A stretch of DNA of 57,614 bases, counting the filler, from Sphacelaria rigidula (taxonomy: Eukaryota), in NCBI GenBank assembly GCA_964200075.2. It is 7 parts of 7 records of this genome, joined end to end, with 100 filler letters (N's around TTAATTAATTAA, not from the genome) between each part and the next. Parts side by side here need not be neighbours in the genome. Positions count along the whole stretch, not along the records: positions 16,491 to 24,635 come from CAXNAA020012130.1; 6 more parts are not named here. The stretch is one strand, 5' to 3'. A program made the position numbers and the translations under genes. The notes under the pieces are model-generated. The model saw only the letters and a list, made by a program, of their open reading frames with translations, was not told the DNA's origin and searched no databases. The number at the start of each line of letters is the position of its first letter. Position 1 is the first letter of the stretch. Positions 13,497 through 40,966 of this stretch are shown in pieces.

Positions 13497-14250
13497 GATT
13501 TCGAAACACCTGTCGGGAGTACTCGAGGACAATTTGAACATATTCCAATCGGCATGTCACCAATTTCGTACTGTAGCGTTATCATCCCTCTCTCCCTTCC
13601 TCCCCGCCTGTCGTTGTCTACTGCTAAAGTCGTTCAGGTGGATGGCATCGAGGAGGCGAGGAAGAAGAGAGGGTCCCGCTGACACCGAAAAGTTGGCAGA
13701 ACGATCAAGGCCAAGTCCACTCGTGGGGAGAAGGCGAACGAGGACACCGAGAACGACGGCATCAACCCCAAGACAGAGGATGTGGTGAGTGCTGTGCATT
13801 CACCACGTCCTTTAACTTGGGCTTGATGTCGTTCTCGTTGTCCTTTTTTGTCTTTTTACCGCGAGTGAACTTGGCCTTTATCGCTCTCCCCACTCTTTGG
13901 TACTAGCGGGATTCTCCCTTCTTTCTCGCCGCCTCGATGCCATCCACCTGAACGAAGGTGTTCGCCACGTGGTAGAGCTGACAAAAGGATTGCTCTAGTT
14001 CTCGACGCTTGACGATGACTCCTTCACGGTGTGTTCCATAATGGTTGTTCCAGAAGTGGAAGTCCGTGCTGTCATCTCATTTGCCCTGCCTAAAAGAAGT
14101 GCGACTTTGTCCCAGCGTCTGTTTAAATCTAGCCCAGGCCTCAACGCAGCCCAACAAGGAGATGAATGACGACCTGCAAAAGGGAGGTGAGCGACGTGAA
14201 GGTGAGACTTTGCCGTCATCAGGTACTGGACACCGTGCCGTGGACTCCAG
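13497..14250 (+). repeat. Tandem duplication unit 1 (contains a long hairpin)
   Basis: Colinear with 14503-15235 on both sides of the hairpin, e.g. GGCATGTCACCAATTTCGTACTGTAGCG and AAGGTGTTCGCCACGTGGTAGAGCTG. Confidence 0.85.
13630..13955. repeat. Long imperfect hairpin (~160-nt arms, ~3-nt loop); candidate hpRNA/pre-miRNA
   Basis: TCGTTCAGGTGGATGGCATCGAGG... pairs with ...CCTCGATGCCATCCACCTGAACGA, and complementarity continues up to the loop. Confidence 0.85.
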
Positions 14251-14502
14251 GGGGGGGAGGGGGGCATACTTATTTGTTGCTTGCCTTAGACGCTTGAGCA
14301 TTGACCACGCATATCTTCAGAGACGGAGCACCGTTCCTACTCCTAATAGAGACACCACCAACATTTAGGTGCTCATAACGTTTCTTCCATAAATTACGCA
14401 AAACCTTTTACACATCTTTCCCCGTCCTGTTTCGTCGTCTGTGGCCACCATCTCTCTCCCAGTGTAGCCATCGTTTTCTCGCTACTGTCTAAGGCATTGA
14501 AC

Positions 14503-15235
14503 GACTTCGGAACACCTGTCGTGAATACTTGAGGACGAATTGGTCATATTCCCATTGGCATGTCACCAATTTCGTACTGTAGCGATATCATCCCTCTCTC
14601 GCATTCACCTTGCCTGTCGGTGTCTACTACCACAAATGTTCAGGTGGATGGCATCGAGGAAGCGAGAAAGAAGAGAGAATTCCGCTGACACCGAAGAGTG
14701 GGCAGAATGATCAAGGCAACATTCGCTCGCCAGGAGAAGGCAATAAAGAACACCGAGAACGACGGCATCAAGCCCAAGGTAAAGGACGTGGTGACCTCTG
14801 CCTTGGGGTTGATGCCGTCGTTCTCGTTGCCCATCGTTGCCTTCTCCCGGCGAGTGAACGTTGCCTTAATCGCTCGTCCCACTCTTCGGTGTCAGCGGGA
14901 CCCTCTCTTCTTCCTCGCCTCCTCGATGCCATCCACCTGAACAAAGGTGTTCGCCACGTGGTAGAGCTGGCAAAAGGGACCGCTCTCGACGCGTGACGAC
15001 GACTCGTTCACGGTGTGTTCCACAAGTGGAGTGTGCCAAAAGTGAAAGTCCGTGTTGTCATCTCATCTGCCCTGTCTCAACGAAGTGCGATTTTGTTCCG
15101 GCGCTCGTTTGAGTCTAGCCCAGGCCTCGACGCAGCCTGACAAGGAGATCAATGACGACCTACAAAAGCGACGTAAAGGTGAGACTTTGCAGCCATCATG
15201 TAGTGGACATCGTGTCACGTGCTCCGTGGGGGGGG
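14503..15235 (+). repeat. Tandem duplication unit 2
   Basis: Diverged direct copy of 13497-14250. Confidence 0.85.
14637..14943. repeat. Second copy of the long hairpin (~150-nt arms)
   Basis: TGTTCAGGTGGATGGCATCGAGG...CCTCGATGCCATCCACCTGAACA. Confidence 0.85.
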
Positions 15236-16340
15236 GGCGGCGGCATTGAATGACCGCCAGCTGGATCGTTGTAAAGCCCCGACTTGATGTGCGGTAGAGA
15301 TCATCATGGAGACCATAAAGATGTACAGTACTCCAGTAAGATCGATACATCTCATTCTCCCTCGAGTCTCGTTTTTGCCCGTTTGGCTGTCGACATTTTT
15401 CTCGGCCTTTGTCTAGTGCTCTTGTTTTGCTCTCTTCTATATTTCCTACCCGCCCCGTCGTTTTCGTGCCGTGTTTATTTTTCGTCTAGCTCTCGTTTAT
15501 TTTTCATTCCCCTTTTTTTTCCTTCGCGAAGGGAGTTCACTACGCGCTGATCTTCGGGGTGCGTCTACCTTTGTCACCACGGCTTGATTCGTAGAGGATC
15601 AATCTATTAACGACAATTGATCAATCATTTAAACAAACCATCGATTCGTGTACTCAGAAACGGCCGCTTCTACGTCGTAACGCCTTGAAAAGATTTGATA
15701 TAAAGCGCTTATGGCCATGTACCCAAGAACATTCCGAACCAATTGATGCGACACATTGGAAGTCCCCTATGTCGTGCACCACACAAGGTATCACCATGAG
15801 CCCTGATCCACCATCCTTTTCCCCCGTTCCGACACCGGGCTCTCGTGTCCCCCATCTCCGCCCGAATCAGCTCTACATGAACAAGGAACGAATGGCCCTA
15901 GCGGGGACGAGACCTCACGCTATGTCACGTGGCGGCTTCTAGGGGTGGAGAAAGAGGAAGACCAAAAAAACCGAGATCCTGTACCAGTCACCGAAGCCCA
16001 AGGGATACTGAGAGACATCTGTCTCCATGTTGAGTAAGCCTGGTCGGGAGAGCCGGGAGTCAGAGCTGGTGGCTAAACCAGAGGGCCTGATTGACGTGGA
16101 AAGGGTAAAGGGGAAAGTTCTGGGAGCCGTCCCTGAACGCACCAGGGTCTGAGCTTGACGAAGCGTAGGTGTAAGAGAGAATGAACCCGACCACAATCGT
16201 CGGTTGTAGTCGCATTGGCTCATTTGCTTTCCACTCTGTAGTCGCACACGTTTGTTTTGTCACCGGTCTTTCCTTGACCGGCATGTGTTTTGGGAAGCAA
16301 CAGCTGTAAGTTTCAACATTATTTCGGGAAGGCATGGGGT

Positions 16341-16693: not shown

Positions 16694-19544
16694 CACTAGC
16701 CTCGTTCCGCGAATGTTTTTGTTGGGCGCACGTTTCTTTGCACTGTATTGCTGAATGCTATCACTGTTCTGTCCCTATTTCTATATCCGTAACGGCCAGT
16801 ACTGTATCCGCGCGTGGGTGGCGGAAGAGCCTAACTTGACCCTGACGCCAGCCCCGAGATCGCAACGGCACGATGTTTCACAACACGCCGCATCACAAAA
16901 GACCGACGTGCTGTGAGTTGTGAGTCCAGTTATTGTGTCGATGTAGAGAGACTCGGGAGCCACTCCCCGGGAGAAAGGGGCGTGGCCGTTGTGGCGTCCG
17001 TGACCGGCAAATGAGTGAGAAAAGAGCCGAATGTGTGGGCGCCATGGTTGAAGTTGGCGCGTGGATTCCCTTGCGCGCGATGTGCCGCATCAGGTACAGT
17101 GGAGAGAGCGATGGCCTAGCAGAGGTACGTTATCGATCGATCGGTGGCCCAGATAAGGTACGACTTAAAAAAAATCATACATCAGGTATAACTGGCCGAA
17201 ATTTGGCCTAGAAAATGTAGGCGGTTTCTGGTGACGAGACGTCCCTTTTCGCGTGGCCATATATCGCGAGTAACTTGTTTGTTTTTTCGGGGGGGTTTAG
17301 GGGTCCAGGTGCCAATTTCCCCCCGAATGATGTGCGTGAAAAATTCGGAGCGAAAACGGTCAAACTAGCGTGCTTTGCTTTTTTCGCGTTTGGGGTCATT
17401 TTTCGTACCTTCTTTAGGCAAAAAACGAGAAGGTACACTTTTTCTAGGTCATCGCCCTAATTTTCATGTATTCACATTTATGATCGGGATCGAATCGGTC
17501 CACTGAAAGTACCGAAAAGCTAGAACCTGGGGTTTCAATTTCGCAGGACCCCCGAAGATCGGTCAAGCCCGTAAGTCACTCATTATTAATCGCAGTTTTT
17601 TTTATCTCGACATTTTTCAAGAGGATTACAATACTGTATCTCTAGATCCCCACTTTCTGGAATTCAACCTTCACTTTATGAGCCGTGGCAAGCGAAAGAA
17701 ATTTGGAGATTTTCAAGTAACTAAGAAATTACAAATTCTACAGACTTCTGATGCTGACTTCTGTACTCGTGGCATATCTGCTCTCCTCGGCAACACGGCA
17801 GAGGTCGGGAGATTTACGCAAGGATTCGTGACAGCGCGACAGTCAGGGTTTGATAGATGACTCTTTGACGCCTTATGTTCGTAGTGGTATCGGCAGCATC
17901 GCTGGGTGCAAACAAACGTGTCTTGCAGCAGGTGTAAACTGGAGCAATAGTGTGGGTGTGTGTCGGAGTTTTCGTCGACGCAACAGAGGTTACGACTGTA
18001 CAACTTTTATCTCATATTCAACAACCTCGCGGGTGCTCACGACTCTCCGATCCAATTCGGGCCTCCTATTCTCAGAGCAAAGCGCCTCGAAGGTTCATAG
18101 AAGTTGATTGTATGTCAGCGAGTGTCACAAGTCGCGAATGCTGGCCCAGCTGTAGCCCGTGCCCACCGCCATAGGTACCACAATCTCCGGGATAATACAA
18201 CTCATCCTCTAACAAGACACACAAATGCTGCAAGGTATATGCGTGTGGCAGGCATGTCGGTAAGAGCCGTTGTCCCCCTAGGGTATGAACACCCACAACA
18301 CAATAGTTTGCGAAGCTGCTGGTGGCGGTAGCGGGGGATTTTGTGTTGGCATACTACACCGTACACCCTGATAAAACATTCCAGTACGGTCCTTGAAGTA
18401 TGGGGGCGTGCTCTTACACTCCAGAGATGGTTCGAAACGGCATATATATGCCGGTGAACGACCTTCTTACTTCATCTTTGTGGGCATGCACCTTAATTCA
18501 AGATGATATACCCTACAGAGCACAACCTGGCAGCTTTGTCTTCCCGTCTTGCCCTCGAAATGCCTTCTACAGCGGGATTATTGCACAACATGCGTCGTAT
18601 CCGCAGAGTCACGACGATAGGATGGGGCATGGCTTTGAGCACCCCTCAGCATCGTGGTCTCAGTGGACCGTACACCCGTCTGAAAAAAAAACAGGTTTGC
18701 ACAGTGAACATGTTTCCTCGACATTCATTCGTGGCTTGAATAACTGTACATTATGCGCTGCCTTCACCGTCGAGAGTTAGGACCTGTCTCTGCGCCATCC
18801 CTCCACATAGCCCCCACCCAAACTGTTGCCGCCATGAGACAAATAACGGCGAGCTAGATCCTAAGTGCCGGCGCCACCACGGACTAAGCTCCGGCCTCGC
18901 TCGATCGTCGGCTATGACGTGCGCCTGCAACCGCACCACCGGGCAAGGAAGGACGCCCAGCAAACCCTCACCACCGACTCCGTCACAAATGCCGCAAAAC
19001 TCGACATCCAGTAGCCTAACCATCACGTCAAAGACACTTGACCTATTCATAAAGCATGATGGAAACGAACACGGCACGCTGCCTGGCGCCATTCCGAGCC
19101 CATGCACATCATCCGCGACTTCCTTCCTCGCCCACCTCTGCGGGCACCTGAGGGGAAACGTACTACGCGCGGCAAACATGAGGTAGTGCAGGCGAACAAA
19201 AGAACGAGTGAGAGTCGTGTTCGAATCATATTTCACGGACATCACACAACAGGAGGGTACGAAAAGTCCGGCGTTTTCATCGCAGCAAGAGCGTAATTAC
19301 GCCGGAACTCCTCTGCAAGGGCTCGCTAAAACTACGCTACTGTTATGTTGTCTGCCACTTGGCCCGATCTGTCCTTCAATCGCACTGTCTTTCAACTACC
19401 TGCCTCTATGTCTCGGGTACCATATATCGCCCGTCTCCTGATTACAGATCGCCCCACTCGGCGACAACGTCGGATCCAACATAATTATCAGTATATGTAT
19501 GGACGGGATAAATCGCACATTCGCGGTATGTGGCGAAATCACGC

Positions 19545-19777
19545 TGTCACGGTTGAGTATATAGTGGATCCTGGATGATGACCAGGGGACAAGGGCATCC
19601 TGTGGATGATGACCCTTGCTGTGTAGCCCAGGCCTGATGGTAGGCTACAGGTGTTGACTCCGAATAATGATCAGGTGTTGTAAAGGCTGACAACTGAGAC
19701 CTTGAGGCCAGTGAAGCTGGGGAGTCCCTCAACAGCATTTAGACTCTGCAGTACTAGCAAACCATGCTAGCGTCACA
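19545..19777 (+). repeat. 5' LTR of Gypsy element 1 (~233 bp)
   Basis: TGTCACG...CGTCACA termini. It shares a CAGGGGACA...ATCCTG...GATGA block with the LTR at 40470 and is followed by the palindrome AATATCGATATT. Confidence 0.65.
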
Positions 19778-20087
19778 ATATCGATATTAGTGCTAGTGCT
19801 GGCGTGCTAGTAGATGCTATCGTTTGAGGCTGCTGAAACAATTTAGCAGGGAGAGTCTGGACAAATTGTAATTAGCTTCGGGCATAGATCTTCACGGACG
19901 CGTGAGGAGGGATCAAGCTGAGGTAGCTGAAAAGGCGGCTGGCTCGTGATTGATCCAGACTGGAGACTTGCTGGAGCTGCGCACAGCGGGTGTTTATACA
20001 ACCCCAGGGCTGTGTTGGAGCGGCGAAGCAAGCAGGTGTGAAATGAAGTTTGAGAAGGTTTGAGAAATCCTCGATTTAGGCTCAAGA

Positions 20088-21041
20088 ATGTCGACTATGG
20101 AGGTACCGATAAGAGAGCCAGCAGAAACGACTGTAACCCCAGTCATTCTAAAGGAAGAGTTGCGGCCGCCCAGTTACGGGAGTTTATATTCTGAAGGTGC
20201 CTCTCGATCGTTTTACACGAGGTTAATTGAATACAAAAGGGGGGTGGAGCATGCGAATGTAGGGGGTGCGGTGAGGCATCAGGTGGTTTCTATGGCGCAA
20301 TAAGTACCAACACCCTTGCAACGCGTTTTCGCGAGACGGTTTCATGAAAAGAATACCATAACGCCGCTGCAGTTGGCCGCAGCGATAAAAAAGCACGCAG
20401 GGCATGCGGCAGGCGCGGAGGTAGAGCTTGCTCAGGCGTCCGCGGCCGTGGCAAAGGCTGTCGCAATGAACCACAAGGGGAGGACCATGCGTGAGAGGGT
20501 GGAGCCCATAATGGGTGAGTTGGAAACGTATTTTGCGGAAAATCCCAACGTAGAGATGATATATCGTTCGTCCGACGGGAAATTTCGCCCAGGGCCCGCT
20601 GCGGCGGTCACCAAAGCGATTGTGGAGGGCCTGGCACCGGCGGAATTTAAGCAGGTCGTGCTTGTACAGTTACAGCACGAAACAAATTGGAGGTCGGACC
20701 CGTATTTAGTCATGAATACCGTGGTGGCTGAGGCTCAGGCATGGCGGCGCGTCGAAGTGTTCGGAAAGCCATCCATTTCGTCGCCGCAGTCTTCGAGCTC
20801 GCGTAACCGCGGATCAAAATCCGCAGGCAGTTCCGCCTCCAATTTTACTTGTTTTCAGTGTGGCCAGGTCGGTCACATCGCACGGAAGTGCACAACGCCT
20901 TCTGAAGGGGAGTCTGGGCAGACGAATGCCGCGCGCCCTCACAAGGGCAAGAGACGAGGTAATCGTGGTGGCGGCGTCAGCAGGGGTCCGGTTCTGGATT
21001 CGGTTCAGCCGCAGGGGCTGCTGCTCCGCAACGGGCGGTGA
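20088..21041 (+). pseudogene. Gypsy gag with an internal stop
   Basis: ORFs 20088-20303 and 20316-21041 are in the same frame, separated by TAA. Zinc knuckle CFQCGQVGHIARKC lies at 20850-20891. Confidence 0.85.
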
Positions 21042-21275: not shown

Positions 21276-24200
21276 GTGGGGATTACGAACAATCAGTCGG
21301 CGGAGCAGGTGCCGTTCGAGGACCAAGACAATTATGTCCCTACCGAGTTATATCTGCCCGATCAACGGACGCGGGGAGTGATTTCGGCCAAAGCGGTGTT
21401 GGATTCAGGCGCCCACTTCACGAGCATGTCGGTGCTAATTGTGGAGATGCTGGAGCGTCTACTCCCCGGTGAGTAAATCCGAATTCCGTTTTCGCTCGGG
21501 GCGCGGCAGGCCATCACCTCATCGGGGCAACGTATAAGTGTGAGGGAGCGTACGATTCCCCTACAGTTGGCGTTCCTGACTACTTGGGGGCCAGAAAAAT
21601 TACCTCCAATATCGTTGGTGATCATGCCGGGGACGGATGGTGTCGTTTTGTTGGGTCTACCGACGCTTCGGGGACTCGCAGTCGATCCATATGATCGGTT
21701 GTTGGAGTCCCTAAAAACGAAAATGCCGTCGCCCGGTTCGAGTGTCGAGGCGCCTGCTTTTTTGGCCAGTCGCAGAGTGAGCTTGTCGGTTGATGCTCTC
21801 CAGGAGGCGGGGGGGCAGGTGTCCGAGGAGCGTGATGAGGCAGTGGAACGCTTGGTGAAGCGCGGCCCCGATATGTCTATGGAGCCGGCGGAAGAAGAGT
21901 CGGTGGAAAATGGCCTCGGAGTCTCAAAAGCGGAGCGCTTGCGTAGCATACTGTATAGCCACGTTAACGCGTTTCGTCGTGCGCTGAGGGGTGATCCCCC
22001 TGCGCACGTGGAACCCATGAGGGTTACGCTGAAGCCAGGGGTGGCCGCGGTGAAGGCAAAACCGAGGAGGTATGATCCGGTAAAGTTCAGTTGGCTAGCT
22101 TCTTGCATGGGAGCTCTTGTGGGGTTTGGGTTGGTGTTCAGGAATCTCCAGGCGGTGTGGTCCAGTCCAGCGATGGCGGTGCCTAAGAAGGACTCTTTCC
22201 GTCTTGTTAGCGATTCCGGAGCCGTCAATGATCAGGTGGAGAAGTCGCCGCGTGTCATGCCCAATCAGGAATCCGACATGATAGACCTGTTGAGTGCGCG
22301 ATGTTTCGGTAAGTTGGGCCTCCTACAGGGAACTGGCAGATGCCGTTGGCCGAAGAGGCGCAAGAGATATTCACAATCACGAGTCCGTTTGGCATGTTTA
22401 CCCCGCAAAGAGTACCGCAAGGCGTGTTGAATGCTACTTTCTATTTTCAAGGTGTCATGGTGGACCTTTTAGATGGCTTAAAATGCACGATTTGGGTGGA
22501 TGATGTATTTTTCTTCGCGGATACGGAAGACGAACTGTTGGATACGCTTGATGCAATCTTGGCTCGCTTGGAGAGCGTTGGTCTGTTTGCAGCTGCCCAC
22601 AAGTAAACCTTTTTTGCTAGTGAACTAGTGTGGTGTGGGAAAGTGTACTCACACGGCCGCGTCTCGCATGACCCGGTCCGCTCGCAAGGTTTGTATGACA
22701 TGCGGCGTCCAGAAACAGCCGCAGAACTAATGTAATTCCTGCACACAATGAACTGGTTGCGTACCTCGTTGCCACGTATGGCTGAAGTAGTGGCGCCCTT
22801 ACGCGGTTTTCTAGAGGAACTCATGGTGGGGGCAGCAAGGCGCACGAAGCGGGTGTCAAAAAATCGTGTTATTCCACCCGGCTCGTGGACGGAGGATAGA
22901 CTGCAGGCATGCGCGGCAGTGAAGGATCTGGTGGCTCACGCCGTGACGCTGTTCCATCCCCGCCCCGGTTTCCAGGTGCTGATGTTTCCGGATGCATCCG
23001 AGTGTCATTGGGGTAGTTTTGTCACGCAGGTGCCTAATGCAGAAATGCAACAACGGTTGCCGGTTGAAGACATGACGCATGAACCGCTAGCTTTTCCGAG
23101 TGGTAATTTCAAGGGTTTCCAGATGCGTTGGGCAAAAATTGACAAAGAAGGTTTCGCCATCGTGAGCACTTTTCGTCGTCTCGAGCATCTATTGTGGAAT
23201 GGCGTACACATTTTCACGGATCACCGAAATCTAGCGTACATTTTCAACCCGGAGGCATGCGTGACGTCTGTGTCGAAGGCGTTGGCACAGCGATTGGAGG
23301 GGTGGAAAGGAGTATTAGGACAGTATCGGTACATGATTTGTCATATTTCGGGTGAGCGTAACGCGTGGGGTGACTTGCTGGCGCGCTGGGTAAATATTCC
23401 CACTTTGCCTGCGGGCGCTGTGGCTGTGTATGGTCCGTGCGAACCTGATGACTCAATGCCGCCCAAATCTGTTGTCCGCCAAGCGCAACGAAAAGACCTT
23501 GGGGCCGAAGATGCGGGTGTGCATTCTTTCGAGTCGGACGTTGGTACTACTATCTTGGAAAATGAAGGTCTGTTTCGTGTGCATGTGCGTGGCCGAAACG
23601 TTTTGTGGATTCCGAGTTCTGACAAACAGTTGCAGGTGCGTGTGATGATATGCGCGCATATGCGGGACGCCGGGCACCGTGGTGTGGCTGCGACGCTCGT
23701 GCGCTTGCAAGAGTTTTGTGTCTGGCATGGGATAGAAACTCATGTGCGCGAGTTTGTCCGCCAGTGTCTTCACTGTGCTGACTCGAGGGCGGGCGGTGTT
23801 GTTCCCCGCCCGCTCGGTGAAACGGTCCATGGGACCACGCCGAATAAAGTCGTTCATTTTGACTTCTGGCACGTGGGCGAGAGTGGCCCGCTAGCTTCCC
23901 AAGGTTTGTCGGAGGATGCTGGGTTTCGATACATTTTGGTGATCATGGATGATATGAGCAACTTTGTGGCTCTGGAATCAGTAAGTAGCATTGTGTACTG
24001 CTGAGTCGACTGCTGCGTCTTTGCTAAATTGGTGCAAAACTTTGGGGGTGCCCCGTGTGTGGGTGAGTGATACCGCCACGCATTTCAAGAATGCGATCTT
24101 GGCTCGGTTGCGAAAGGCTCTGCGAGTTGATCACCACTTTGCGGTAGCGTATTCTCCGTGGTCTTATGGTACGTGCGAACGCATGGTCAAGGAAGTAGTT

Positions 24201-24400
24201 CGTGCTCTTCACTCTATTCTTCTCGAGCAGCGTCGAGAGGTGACCGAGTGGGTGGACGTGTTGCCGGCGGTGCAATGGGCGCTAAATACAGCATATCGCC
24301 GTCGGTATGATAGTACGCCGTATCACGCGATGTTTGGCCGTGCCCCTCGGACGTCTCTCTCAGTGTTGACGTCCTCGTCGGCAGGGGAATGGAAGCGTGA
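21276..24400 (+). pseudogene. Gypsy pol (protease, RT, RNase H, integrase), disrupted
   Basis: Protease AVLDSGAH; RT VPQGVLNA...IWVDDVF; RNase H FPDASECHWG...FTDHRNL; integrase CAHMRDAGH...CLHC, VHFDF, VSDTATHF, CERM. Stops at 21474, 22604 and 22733; frameshifts near 22330 and 23985. Confidence 0.92.
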
Positions 24401-24635
24401 TGTTCTGGTGTTACAGGGTGGATAATGACCCTGTATAGTAGACTATAGAGCAATTGGATCATGGCTACACCTTCTTCAGTCTAATGACGACTTGGTGGGA
24501 AACATATCGTGCAACTCTGTCCCCTACCGGGCCACAGAGAAAGCACACGAAAGCAAACCAATTCTGAAGGCAAAACTGATAATCGTCGCCCGACTATTGT
24601 ATTGCACTTCGCATCTGCTGACCACTGCTAACGAC

Positions 24636-24735: not shown

Positions 24736-25353
24736 CCCCGATCGACCAAGCGCTCCACCGCTTCATCCCCGGGAGCCTCCTCCTCATTGGCTCTCAGGAA
24801 CGACCGTGAGGATACGGTCACACGTCTCACAGCAAGATAGCTGGGGTTATCCACGCCGGTTTGCACCGGCATAGCATGCGGGCGTAACCTACCCAAAACC
24901 AGCGAATAAAAATAACTCCCGCGCTCCTTTGTCGTCGCCATCCCAAACAGAACCACGCTGTCCCTGCCGGGCATGGCAGCGAACGTGATGGGCTGCAACT
25001 CGTCCCCCACGGCGTACGCACGCTAACAGCAATCGGCACCGTTTCATGTGTAACCGTCACGGGAACACCCGTGGCGGTCTGTGCCGTTTGCTGTCCATTT
25101 TCGGACGGAATCTGCGGCGGAGCGCCGTCAAACTGCGAAGTCAATTGTTCTAGCAACCCCACACCGACTGACGTGACGCGGGCCCAGAATCCAGAATAAC
25201 GCGGGCCATGAACGAACCTACGGAACCAGGCCAGGAAAGATCTGCGCGTAAACATTCAGCCTTGCAATCGACAGATACCACACCTGCCGAAGAACCCTCC
25301 TCGGTATGAAGACTCACCTGACGCCAGGGCTGCGCTCCAGTACTTGGCATCGA

Positions 25354-26560
25354 TCATTGAGAATAAGCGGTCCACCCAGACCACGTCGCCGAATATGCAG
25401 ACGGCGCTGTTACAGCCGTCGCAGCAGCAGGGGATGCACCAGACAAGGGTCCTGCCTGGCCGAGGGATTGCGAACTATTCGCTCCAGCACTCCCCACCGA
25501 AGTATTTACATTCCCCACGTATACTGTCCGCCCCGACACGGACGAACCAGAAGATCCAGAGTCACCACCTGATGGCGTAGTGGAAGAAAAAGCAGCGGAG
25601 GAACCACCATCCGCCGCCGATTGCTTGCTACCGCAGCCGCCGCGCCCGCGTCCATGGTTGGCACGGCCTCGTCCACCGTGGCAACCGCCGCGAGATCTTA
25701 ATGAATCCCGCACACACCCTTGAACAGCGCCTTGAGCACAAGGGCTGGGGCAATCCTTGATCAGGTGTCCGTTGTCGCCGCAGTTGTAACATGCTCGCGA
25801 TGACGACGCTCGCGAGGACAGCTGCTGTTCCTGTTGCTGTTGTTGTTTGCCGCGTGCACCACCTGCACTTGCCGCAGAATCGCGCCAGCCATGCGCCTCA
25901 ATGAACTTCCAGTGGTCGGCGGCATCAAATATCTTGTTGACCATCACCGTCGGATTCTTTTTCCAGCCATCTACATATGTCAGTACGCTTTTGACATACG
26001 CCTTAAATTCCGGAGGCGAAATCCTGTCCACCACAGTTGTGGAAACCGACTCGGTCGGGCCTGGCAACCAACTCCTGTCCTCCGCACGGCACATGGCTTG
26101 CACCGTGGGATCTTCAGCGAAAAACGTTCCCATCGATGCGTTAGCCACCATCGCTCAATCTGACGAATGTTCCACCGCTTTTCTGCATTGAAAGCACTCT
26201 ACGCAGGTCTGCTGCAGCCCGCGCAGTACTATGTTTGCCACCGGTTGTGGTGTACCCGGCATTGCTGCTTCAAAGCGTCCACCACTTCCTCGGGGGTCAT
26301 AGCACGACGGTCCTTGTACATGCCTTCAAAGCACCGATGAATTTATGAAGGGGTGAGTTGTCGTGCACTCACCCTAGCATGCCTCACAACTCCTTGTGCA
26401 ATCGCAAGGTGCAAACGCTTTATGTTGTCGAGATATGCGACGTGAAAAAGTCTTGATGCTTCCTCGGTCCACACCTCACCCTACTTTGGCGGGTCCAGCG
26501 GCTCACCCAACACCAGCGGCGCTGCCCCCGCTTCAGCCCTATCGTCTAGGATTCAAACAC
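25354..26560 (-). pseudogene. Gypsy gag of element 2, frameshifted
   Basis: The 265-aa ORF carries a CCHC knuckle. Upstream LDPPK*GEVWTEEASRLF aligns by eye with element 1 LRPPSYGSLYSEGASRSF. Confidence 0.75.
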
Positions 26561-26730
26561 TTCACGGAGAGACTCTTGCCTTACTTGTGCGTCCTCCAGC
26601 CCACGTAGCGTCCTCCCCCGCTGTGCGCTTCAAGTTGGTATCCTCCCGTCTGCGGGGCTGGCTTTCAGCTGCGGCCCCTTCTCCTCGGCCAGACTCCTCC
26701 AACAGAGAGCCGAGAATAATATCTAGATAT

Positions 26731-26984
26731 TGCAGCCTCTGCCAGACGATCTGGACAAGAGGACTTCTAACGAGGTACTCCTCCAGTATCACTGGCCTCG
26801 TGCTCGACAAGTCCTTTCTTATAACTTGTTATTATCTCGGAGTGATCCTCAATAGATCACGAGCCAGACAGCAATGGGCCACACAGAAAAGGGCCGTCAA
26901 TCCAGGATCCTCTGTCCCCTGCCACTGCTCCAATCATGCATGGGATTATTTTGAAACCCTACGGCTTGGTATTATTTGGCTACA
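26731..26984 (-). repeat. 5' LTR of Gypsy element 2 (~254 bp)
   Basis: On the minus strand it runs TGTAGCC...GGCTGCA. It is colinear with 40470-40727, and the homology ends essentially at the TG start. Confidence 0.8.
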
Positions 26985-36152: not shown

Positions 36153-38283
36153 GTACCGACTGCAATGAAAGGGTCTCTCACTATTGAAAGCAGAATGTGA
36201 AGATAAAAGGGGACATAGCTGATTCGAAGAACTACCCCTGGCATCGCGAGGACATCAAGGGAACCTCTGAGGACGTGTATTTTATCGAAACAAAAAAGAA
36301 GCAAAAATAGCGAAAAGAAGCGAGACATATATTTTTCTTTTTGGCGTTATTTGACGTTGAGGGGAACATGAATCGTTGGTGTGATGACCCTTGGTGTGGT
36401 ACACGCCTGTCGCAGAGCCCGAACCTGAGGCACAAGCACAAATCAGCGTCTGATCGCACTGTCCCAAGCATATACACAGTGCATAGCTTGAGCCGTAGGT
36501 GCTGATGAATAAAGTAAGGCGTTTTTGGATTGGGGTGAGTCGTCTCAAAGCTGGTTGGAGGCACAATGATTCCTGTTAGACGCGCGCCGTACAACACACG
36601 TACAGTCACCGAACTCCGTCGTGAGCAACTTTGTGGCACAAGCATGGTCGCCCTTCTTCCACTACTGAACAGATGATCGACACAGTGTATAGATGAGCAA
36701 AAGCTAGCGCTACGAGTGATGCGCTTGCTTGTGCTGTAGGCTTATGTGTGTAATTGTTCGGGGTCGGTTGTGTAGGCGTAAGGTGTTTCAGTCGCGCTCG
36801 TTGGGATTTCCAGAAGTGTTGCCGACTGCGTCCAGCAGCGAGGGAGACGCCGCTCTTCCTAAGAACGGGTTGTTGTGGGCTACCGGACACGTGTTTTTGC
36901 CCGCTTCTTTCATTCGGCTTCCTCTACTTTTTTGTCTCAACGAGTAACGGCCTGAGCCACACTCGATAACGGGTGCGGGGTCCCACGTAGGATTTATATG
37001 AGAAGTACACATTTTGTGGTTCAAATCACGTATGGCACGATACGAGTGATGTGCTGTGCGCACGGCACGGTAACAGCGCATCGCCGTACTTCTCCCTTAG
37101 TATTAATAGGGGAATAATTATGATTTGGTAACACCGTAATACGGTACGGTGCTGGAATTCCCAGGTTTATGCATAGTTGCGGTTAACCCTTCGGCCGCGA
37201 TCCCTCCTCAGATAGGCTCAGATGCCACATTTGGGGTTTGTTGACAGCTGTTTTTTCACTACACAAGCCATTTTATTCATGAACATGTGGATGTTGGGCA
37301 TATATACATGGAAATCAGTATCGGAGAACCCGTCACCGGTTTTGAGCCTGCAGTCAAGTGCGTGCAGAGTCAGCATGTATGTCTTCGCTGAGCAATCGTC
37401 GGTTTTCGTGAGTACATGCATCTTATGCTGGCAGTCGCAACTGCTGCGATGTATGCCAACGACATAATTCTCTCCTCTTCTCCATGCTTTTGCAGCAGTG
37501 CGGATACTTTCGGGGAAGGACTGTCACACCTTGAGCGTGTGATATCACACGCATGTCGCATCGTCCCAACTGCACTTACTTTTTTGTTGTCTGTGCTGCT
37601 GCTACTCTACCGTACATACATCATGCGAACGTTTTCATCGCGGGTGGCTGGATACAACGACAAGAAATAGTCAGCGTGCAATCGCTTCCCACTGAACATA
37701 GTCTAATGCACGCTGCTGATGTCTCTGCTTGGTGTTCCGCAACAAGACGTCAGACAGTGTGAAGCTTAGCTCGCAGCACAAGAGGGATCAGGCAGGCGAT
37801 AAAGACCACGAGCAGCGTGAAAAGCGCGTTGCTTTCCGGTATTATCTTTGGCTAAATGGTCAGGACCAAAAACCGTCAACTACAGCTGGACCGCGAGGTG
37901 GTCCATGTAGAGTCCATGTAGGGTGTGACGAAGTACGATTCTGACCAATCACAGCTATCAAAATGGGCACGTCCCTCCTCTCGGGGTTTGTTCCCGGCTG
38001 ACGAGTAGTGTTTTCCGTGGAAAACTTCGAAACACACATGGTTGAGTTCGTGAGCTTTCCGGCTGTTCAGCGAATAGGCACCCCCCCCTTCAAGAAGCCA
38101 ACCCCCCGCCCCCTGGGAACCCCCGGATGTTCCATACGTCACATAAACCGCGGGAAACGTTACTAGGAACGTTACGAGCAAGACGTGTCGAGCAAAGCCC
38201 TGTTTGTTCCGGATAGTGTCCATAATACCCCTCCCCCCCCCCCCATGCGCGTGCGCCGTCGTTGAATAAATTGAAATAAACAG

Positions 38284-38748
38284 TTACTAAAGTGGCTCAG
38301 TGCAAACGGATGTCCGTGGGATCACAACACGTGCGGCATGGCAGCTGAGGGAGGCCACCTCGAGCTCCTCAAGTGGGCGAGACGGCACGGCGCACCGTGG
38401 AACTACCAGACGTGTGGGATGGCCGCGAGCGGAGGACACCTCCAGGTCCTAGCATGGCTGAGGGACAACGGCTGCCCGTGGGGATATCGCACGTGTCGGC
38501 GTGCCGCCAAGACGGGCCGACTAGACGTCTTCCATTGGGCTTTGGAAAATGGCTACTTGTGCGGTGATAGCTTGACGTGTACCGTGGCGGCGGAGGGCGG
38601 GCATCTGCACGTTTTGAAGTGGGCTAGGGCGAACGGTTGCGAGTGGGGTGTGTCCACCTTAAGCCGGGCGGCGAAGAACGGGCATTTCGAGGTGGTCAAA
38701 TGGGCAAGGGAGAATGGGTGCCCTTGGGACGAACTGACGTGTGTTCGG
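38284..38748 (+). CDS. Ankyrin-repeat protein (GCPW-type repeats), penultimate exon
   Basis: CAG| acceptor, 155 codons of AAxGGHLxxLKWARxNGCPW repeats, and a phase-0 donor CGG|GTAAGA. Confidence 0.9.
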
Positions 38749-39529
38749 GTAAGAGAATGCAGGATGCTGTATGATATGGCCACCCCCCTTGCTGGCCTCC
38801 ATGGAGTGAGTACCCGGTGACGCCTTGGCTTGGAGGTGTACACGTGCTACAAATTCGCGTGGTTCGTCAACGCGAGAGAAGAGGGATGAATGCCTGTGTA
38901 GTCAAGAGACACAAGTGTGTGACCCGGCTTCCGATATTACCGTCGATGTACCACGAGTTCGAGAGATCGAGCTAATGTGCAGAAATAGCGATGATCATAA
39001 GCATGAAACAGATGCGGACTAAGCTCCGTGTCCGCCTATTACGTGGCGACTGGGGGTGATCTTGATATCATCTTTGAGCGCTGAGTGCCAAGCGAAACAA
39101 TGAATTCACGGTCGACGTTAGCGTGGCGCAGTCGATGCAAGAGAAGCCCGCCGGACGGATTCAGGCTATCTACTAGGACTGAAATGAGGAGCTTGCCGCC
39201 ACGAAAACTCATCGAAAACCCGTGTGATTGTCGTGCACACCGCCTCTTGGCGTCCAGCAGCCCGAAAGTAATAGTGAGATCACAGCGGTTAGTGTACTTG
39301 GAATCGTTTCACTGAGACGGCTGGGTAAAGCAAAACCTATGACAACTACTTGCTGGTGAAGTCGCTCCTAGTGGTACTTGTTCAAGGGCTTGAGAGCTTG
39401 AGTTCTTGGGGACTCAGTCTTGAGAACTCATGTCAAGAGACAGTGGGAGGCTGTTTTCCTCCTTTGAGAACTACGTCGAATTCAAAATATCTTTCTTATT
39501 CAGATATATTTTCTCTGTTTTATGTGCAG

Positions 39530-40469: not shown

Positions 40470-40966
40470 TGTAGCCAAATGATACCAAGCCGTAGGTTTT
40501 AGTGTAATTGCATGCATGATTGGAGCAGTGGCAGGGGACAGGGGATCCTGGATTGATGATCCTTATCTGTGTGGCTTCTTCCTACTTAGCTCTTGATGTG
40601 GTCTATAGAGGATCACTCCGCAATAATAACAAGTGAGAAGAAAGGACTTGTCGAGCACGAGGCCAGTGCTGCTGTATAAGTCCCTCGTGGATACTGCTCT
40701 TGTTTAGATCGTCTGTCAGAGGCTACAATATCTAGATATTCATCCGGCACTCTGTTGGAGGATTTTTGGCTAAGGAGAGATTGGGCTGCAGCTTAGAGCC
40801 AGTTCAGCCCGTAGACAGGAGGAGACCAGCCTGAAGCGCACAGCGCTGGGAGAACGCTCCGTGAGCTGGAGGACGCACAAGTCAGGCAAGAGTATTTACG
40901 TGAAGTGTTCGGAGCATAGACAACATCGCTCAAGCGGCGGCAGCGCCGCTGGTGTTAGGTGAGCCA
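40470..40966 (+). mobile_element. Gypsy element 3 fragment: 5' LTR (40470-40727) plus leader
   Basis: TGTAGCC...GGCTACA is a perfect 7-bp terminal inverted repeat. The region is colinear with the reverse complement of ~26500-26984. Confidence 0.8.

Follow-up and report, generated by a model that had tools for sequence, protein, structure and literature searches.

Palindromic sites at the primer-binding position of a protist Ty3/Gypsy clade suggest priming by paired element RNAs

Element copies and their LTR ends

The window analysed here, 57,614 nucleotides of Sphacelaria rigidula DNA, is made up of seven ~8.1-kb contigs joined by spacers, and the three palindrome copies that it contains therefore sit on different contigs. 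The family A element begins with a 249-bp 5' LTR on the plus strand (19529..19777, TGTGGCG..CGTCACA, with a 7-bp imperfect terminal inverted repeat), whose terminal A is the first letter of a perfect 12-bp palindrome, AATATCGATATT, at the primer-binding position (19777..19788). On the same strand follow a broken gag, seen as an open stretch with a CCHC zinc knuckle (20304..21041), and a broken pol with RT, RNase H and integrase (22128..24403), which carries stops and frameshifts and whose 3' end lies beyond the contig. Family B is present twice. Its minus-strand 5' LTR (26731..26984, 81% to the copy at 40470) adjoins a perfect 14-bp palindrome, AATATCTAGATATT (26718..26731), and its gag (CCHC) and the start of pol (24736..26154, minus strand) are cut by the contig end. 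The plus-strand copy has a 258-bp 5' LTR (40470..40727, TGTAGCC..GGCTACA) and the same perfect palindrome, AATATCTAGATATT (40727..40740), after which the family B leader runs on to about 40968, where the copy is truncated. The initial annotation had reported these three palindromes, and all of them prove to be perfect and to lie exactly where it put them. With TG..CA LTRs, a target duplication and gag followed by RT-RNase H-integrase, the elements belong to Ty3/Gypsy (Metaviridae). In Pol, the nearest named relatives belong to Sphacelaria and Scytosiphon (76-90% identity), which makes a brown-algal host likely, and other copies of families A, B and C have a chromodomain at the C-terminal end. 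Elsewhere in the window lie an open frame with ankyrin repeats (38275-38820), unrelated to the palindrome finding, and a duplicated ~1-kb unit with long inverted repeats (13497-15240), possibly a non-autonomous DNA transposon.

LTR ends were set without use of the palindrome, from paired LTRs, solo LTRs and 4-bp target duplications. Both 3' LTRs and solo LTRs end at the same A and then run into unrelated flanking DNA. Exact 4-bp target duplications surround the paired LTRs of L058, L059, L068, L136, L137 and L144 and were not seen at the paired-LTR loci L051, L052, L056 and L065; in supplement 1 of PMC12477816, the curated Ectocarpus Gypsy families with a stated value all have 4-bp duplications. 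These independently fixed ends bear out the earlier claim that the palindrome includes the terminal A of the LTR. No TGG was found directly after LTR A or LTR B, and an LTR running further to a TGG site, which would have undone the earlier claim that such a PBS is missing, was looked for and rejected because the paired and solo LTR ends and the target duplications fix the terminal A. The two LTR families are also as diverged as had been proposed, with short local matches only, the best being 46 nt at 80%.

A polypurine tract, CTTTGGGGGTGC, precedes the 3' LTRs and has 446 genome matches against 6 in the control. The tract is near-invariant in families A-D though their LTRs are largely unalignable, and a similar tract occurs in the metagenome relative L208. 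As a separate observation on insertion, a C stands just before the TG of the LTR in 15 of 20 left flanks of family A insertions (L001-L020); in several paired family A copies this C is part of the 4-bp duplication, which suggests a target-site bias.

Covariation of the palindrome and extent of the clade

A palindromic site at the primer-binding position is a real, clade-wide feature of these elements. Of the 5686 CA sites in the stretches examined, 24 anchor a perfect palindrome of at least 10 bp, and 15 of these are the target sites. The nine others, in about 5670 CA sites, mean that some CA-anchored palindrome may well turn up in a 5-kb locus, so that position, not mere presence, constitutes the evidence. 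Between them the 15 elements carry 13 different perfect palindromes, of 10, 12 or 14 bp and with eight different central 4-mers. All 15 start at the final A of the LTR, and only one of them has a complementary pair just beyond the palindrome. This constancy of the left edge, together with the changing letters, identifies the boundary at the terminal A, and not the sequence, as the conserved feature.

Within family A, the anchored pattern has 182 genome matches and the reversed control none. The perfect palindrome is kept in 50 of the 100 matches listed (counted by eye), and the others show one or two scattered changes, as expected of old copies. No symmetric double change occurs among the 100 family A copies listed, and repair to symmetry within the family is accordingly not visible. 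Among fetched loci, in tallies that take in a few fusion sites and loose matches, the perfect share is 20/35 for A, 12/24 for B, 21/42 for C, 3/10 for D and 0/2 for E. Between families, the changes are two-sided: C and D, which were reached via the common purine tract, carry AATGAACGTTCATT and AATAAACGTTTATT, respectively, and the RT sister elements L210 and L212 form a second compensatory pair, AAAGAATTCTTT versus AAAGTTAACTTT. The proposal in the initial annotation that symmetry is kept while the centre differs, made on two LTR families, thus extends through compensatory changes to many more (13 palindromes). Two further copies have near-palindromes: a family E copy (L350:1239-1520) with AATAAACGTTCATT, and an unassigned end of another family (L351:1500-1524) followed by AATACACGTGCATG.

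A metagenome scan returned 61 relative loci at 26-53% identity, and none were found in viral contigs. Sixteen distinct metagenome elements have upstream or circularly collapsed sequence, and in 12 of these a palindrome stands at a CA, with LTR 3' ends taken from the polypurine tract and terminal repeats rather than from host junctions. The LTR is marked by the purine tract and/or a terminal inverted repeat at nine loci (L206, L208, L210, L211, L212, L214, L218, L236 and L250), while L207, L243 and L251 contain its 3' part only. In the other four of the 16 (L219, L237-239, L241 and L244) a convincing site was not found.

RT-RNase H trees, with an ingroup gathered by similarity, were built by a quick IQ-TREE run on 52 rows (L285, too short, was left out) and by FastTree on 50 rows (17 rows dropped and 15 added). 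A branch with 100% SH-aLRT sets the 31 rows of the group apart from two further Gypsy lineages of the genome. Placement of the RT in a phylogeny, as the initial annotation had advised, thereby yields a separation from two lineages whose readable sites begin TGG, in trees without labelled reference clades. Named proteins inside the group, compared as proteins only, come from Ectocarpus, Phytophthora, Aphanomyces, Pythium, Plasmodiophora and an 'Rmarinus' entry, and the clade takes in oomycete (including a P. ramorum protein), Plasmodiophora and red-algal proteins. The Ectocarpus protein P0118, a single ORF of 1649 aa, nests among the Sphacelaria rigidula families. So does P0124, a protein labelled as from a Marinobacter MAG, which is probably algal DNA in a bacterial bin.

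A chromodomain lies at the integrase end in three of the four copies scanned (Chromo E 2e-6 to 1e-4, one above the curated cut-off) and also in P0118. All eight of the aligned palindrome elements are extended by a lysine/arginine-rich segment ahead of RNase H and have an insertion behind its first aspartate, both of which are absent or shorter in five outgroup rows; one may speculate that these additions have a role in handling an RNA duplex. The clade is chromodomain-bearing and probably ECR-1-like. The Ectocarpus element ECR-1, which PMC12477816 describes as intact and expressed, resembles the present families in its short LTR (273 bp versus 245-274 bp here), 4-bp duplication and C-terminal chromodomain, and unclassified chromodomain-bearing oomycete Gypsy elements such as Gypsy-20_PR are likewise ECR-1-related (PMC11541908, PMC12477816). 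Kinship to the ECR-1 lineage is inferred here from its description and not from ECR-1 sequence; the Ectocarpus chromodomain lineages are described as not being chromoviruses (PMC12477816). The searched text and supplements of PMC11541908 and PMC12477816 make no mention of a primer site for ECR-1 or its oomycete relatives: in the latter, the terms 'primer', 'tRNA' and 'palindrom' are absent from the main text, and none in the five supplements is tied to LTR elements. Neither the oomycete paper PMC5348765 nor PMC6875170 has a passage on the PBS.

Tail-to-tail LTR fusions

Three tight fusion searches, whose reversed controls returned nothing, gave 13 sites, of which six were kept as fusions. In all six, two LTRs meet tail to tail at a single palindrome, which runs from the terminal A of the first to the terminal T of the inverted second, and in four (L347, L349, L352 and L355) the two arms belong to different families or subfamilies. 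At locus L200 (L347/L360), a D LTR is followed by one palindrome and an inverted C LTR, which is a 3' LTR because the polypurine tract and 3' internal sequence stand on its far side; the structure closes with a second inverted D LTR, between flanks GATA and GGTA. None of the contigs listed from four other runs, possibly from other individuals, bridges this fusion, which for that reason speaks neither for nor against it. L355 joins two B-type LTRs that are 72% alike, and in L349 a short D-type end meets an inverted LTR of E type. In L352 a full A LTR meets a 15-nt collapsed inverted A2-type end, with TAGC on both sides, and the empty site is present in the neighbouring host repeat unit. L353 consists of an A LTR, then 10 nt of inverted U5, then inverted pol, so that the inverted LTR is reduced to 10-15 nt in these last two cases. 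L348, whose two identical arms stand at the end of a contig, may be an artefact of assembly. An exact target duplication is absent in five of the six.

Among the sites not kept, L350, L354 and L356 proved to be normal 5' junctions, L351 had no counterpart in the LTR library, and L357-L359 were set aside on the matched letters without mapping. A loose fusion pattern was uninformative, with 108 matches against 111 in the control and no fusion among six fetched candidates. The idea that the 10-nt extensions in L352 and L353 derive from a 21-nt small-RNA primer was dropped, because for L352 a target duplication enclosing a collapsed inverted LTR is the better reading.

To the right of L355 and L349 there is neither the duplicated site nor the leader, so simple insertion into the site is excluded for both, and a genomic join of two palindromic sites could account for them. 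Short-homology genomic joining explains L352 and L347 poorly. Judged from their sequence, the fusions point to pairing of the palindrome between molecules, and it probably sits on cDNA ends.

Primer types and a proposed priming mechanism

The recognised primers of LTR retrotransposons are of three types, the whole tRNA, the half tRNA and the Tf1-type 5' self-primer (PMC6317226). In the palindrome elements, no TGG complementary to a tRNA 3' end lies within a few nt of the LTR. Against 70 distinct tRNA sequences from 50 fetched loci, a mostly organellar set whose nuclear part is incomplete, the best Watson-Crick complement is 5-7 nt (shuffled mean ~6.6), rising to 9-10 nt with G-U pairs (null 8.8-9.9), and no internal segment of the kind used in half-tRNA priming matches above the null. 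Families C and D have a 10-nt wobble match to one tRNA-Met (null mean 8.8-9.2), and A and B lack it. Complementarity to a host tRNA, which the initial annotation had named as the finding that would overturn its reading, hence does not exceed shuffled controls in this set. Unrelated Gypsy elements of the same genome carry TGG sites where these are readable (L285, L274, L276, L289 and L278), with TGGTGTCC, TGGCGAC and TGGCGAAC as examples of the sequences in those lineages.

The Tf1 type is defined by at least 10 nt of the 5' LTR complementary to the site (PMC6317226), and no such complement was found in 13 elements, where Watson-Crick matches reach 4-6 nt against a null of 4.6-5.6 (the family D row being offset by 2 nt); L236 has a 12-nt match to its own LTR, only with G-U pairs. 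A CHSeq2-like inverse complement 12-41 nt downstream was likewise not found, the best having 2-4 mismatches in 9 nt, and the vicinity of the site in eight loci gave no Rfam match to a known ribozyme or RNA family at E<=1. For the correctly indexed perfect palindromes (n=11), the predicted RNA self-duplex has -9.0 to -19.3 kcal/mol, versus 0 to -1.8 for the hairpin, which in the 10-bp palindromes has 3 bp at most.

On balance, we favour a mechanism in which these chromodomain Ty3/Gypsy elements start reverse transcription by pairing two of their own RNAs through the palindrome, one priming the other. Two co-packaged RNAs would anneal antiparallel across the palindrome, and a 3'-OH at its 3' edge would probably arise from an RNase H cut of the RNA duplex as in Tf1, a step for which Levin's 1996 work is said to provide the precedent, or alternatively from a short transcript ending at that edge. 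RT would extend this primer into U5-R, and the cDNA would begin at the LTR end. In the standard scheme, plus-strand strong-stop DNA copies the 3' end of the primer; here it would end in the same palindrome, making second strand transfer possible. Occasional annealing and mutual extension of two such ends, including those of different families, would leave fusions behind. A palindrome after a 3' LTR and back-to-back LTR pairs are what a primer ending in the palindrome would leave once two of the DNA ends had annealed. Four families of one host have different palindromes, which makes the element's own RNA the likely source of the primer. The far greater stability of the RNA self-duplex over the hairpin favours RNA-dimer priming over fold-back, a dimerisation signal or a host RNA. 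The initial annotation had suggested tRNA-independent priming through either a fold-back or an intermolecular duplex; tRNA independence is upheld as a reading of the sequence, with the energetics and inter-family fusions favouring the duplex and the fold-back disfavoured.

In a fold-back, a single RNA cut at the 3' edge of the palindrome would snap back and prime itself, with symmetry kept only for plus-strand transfer. Because this also demands full symmetry, for second strand transfer, symmetry alone is no proof of an RNA dimer; the fusions, too, need only palindromic plus-strand ends, which a fold-back also yields, and a longer, imperfect hairpin of U5 and leader has the palindrome at its tip in A, B, D, L206 and L218. 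However, that stem is missing in L208, L210, L236 and L250 and would be destroyed by cutting, and the isolated hairpin, at 0 to -1.8 kcal/mol and with only 3 bp for the 10-mers, makes self-priming of this kind unlikely. Priming by a host tRNA fragment or another host small RNA, with the symmetry incidental, we regard as highly improbable. If a tRNA primer regenerated the site, an exact complement of that tRNA would be expected, whereas the best Watson-Crick match is only 5-7 nt, and one host contains four palindromes, out of 13 overall, with compensatory changes; against this stand the wobble-rich 10-nt match of C and D to tRNA-Met, the incomplete nuclear tRNA set and the fact that half-tRNA priming is a known type (PMC6317226).

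The palindrome might instead serve RNA dimerisation or packaging, as the dimer initiation site does in retroviruses, with some other primer in use. Palindromes drive retroviral RNA dimerisation, as discussed in PMC5445492, and the predicted duplex energies fit, but the left edge coincides in 15 of 15 elements with the LTR's last A, where DNA synthesis must start, and in L347 the palindrome follows a 3' LTR, as expected of a primer ending in the palindrome; we consider a pure dimerisation role quite unlikely. A more serious contender, though still a doubtful one, accepts the priming site as real and treats the fusions as unrelated genomic or assembly events (short-homology repair joins, precise insertion or chimeras) that are uninformative on reverse transcription. 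The identical arms of L348 at a contig end and the lack of target duplications in L355 and L349 suit this reading; the mixed parentage of the arms in L347, L349, L352 and L355, the position of L352 within a 4-bp duplication in a contiguous host repeat and the right flanks of L355 and L349, which exclude simple insertion, speak against it.

Among known systems, the fungal GalEa Ty1/Copia elements have a Conserved Hairpin Site (CHSeq1/CHSeq2) whose 9-mer is palindromic with the final A of the LTR; it was proposed as a PBS substitute, without a mechanism and with the statement that none of the models fits (Donnart et al. 2017, PMC5445492), and that work is cited in a paper on bivalve TRIM elements (PMC6934838). 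The palindrome Gypsy elements share with GalEa the lack of a tRNA site and the short palindrome directly after the 5' LTR that includes the terminal A (15 of 15 elements here). They differ in being Ty3/Gypsy, with integrase after RNase H, from a stramenopile and other protists, in having palindromes of 10-14 bp that change freely between families where two 9-mers serve 85% of GalEa families, in lacking a CHSeq2 partner and in showing fusions through the site, which do not figure in the GalEa passages of PMC5445492. Tf1/Sushi, Tj1, Tcn1 and TAR similarly use element RNA instead of tRNA, probably with an RNA-duplex cut, but their primer is the 5' end of the transcript and their site is non-palindromic (PMC6317226, PMC4600332, bioRxiv 10.1101/2022.12.06.519325), whereas here the site is self-complementary and has no 10-nt Watson-Crick complement in the LTR. 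The dictyostelid Skipper is also a chromodomain Gypsy element without a TGG site or a Tf1-type complement, for which novel self-priming was suggested, but it has a polypyrimidine stretch and not a palindrome (PMC5006619). The palindrome Gypsy site works like self-priming, yet the elements are members of neither the Tf1 nor the GalEa group. Our literature search, whose scope did not extend to subscription journals, Repbase reports, figures or bioRxiv supplements, found no report of a palindromic primer site in Gypsy, and the six tail-to-tail LTR fusions sharing one palindrome are new here.

More broadly, and with our judgement evenly poised, these elements may represent a deep, widespread protist Ty3/Gypsy clade with a fourth kind of priming, in which RNAs pair through a self-complementary site and the edge-cut RNA primes. 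Priming, dimerisation and second strand transfer would then be merged in one family-specific password, the fusions would be its fossils, and GalEa Copia elements would have converged on it independently. A geometry described for GalEa in 2017 without a model now recurs in a superfamily unrelated to Copia, where compensatory changes are free, and with the fusions as physical traces of the site's action, how it works becomes testable. Annotation steps that score a tRNA site overlook such elements. Cross-priming could occur only between families with the same palindrome, and palindrome-primed elements would be independent of host tRNA.
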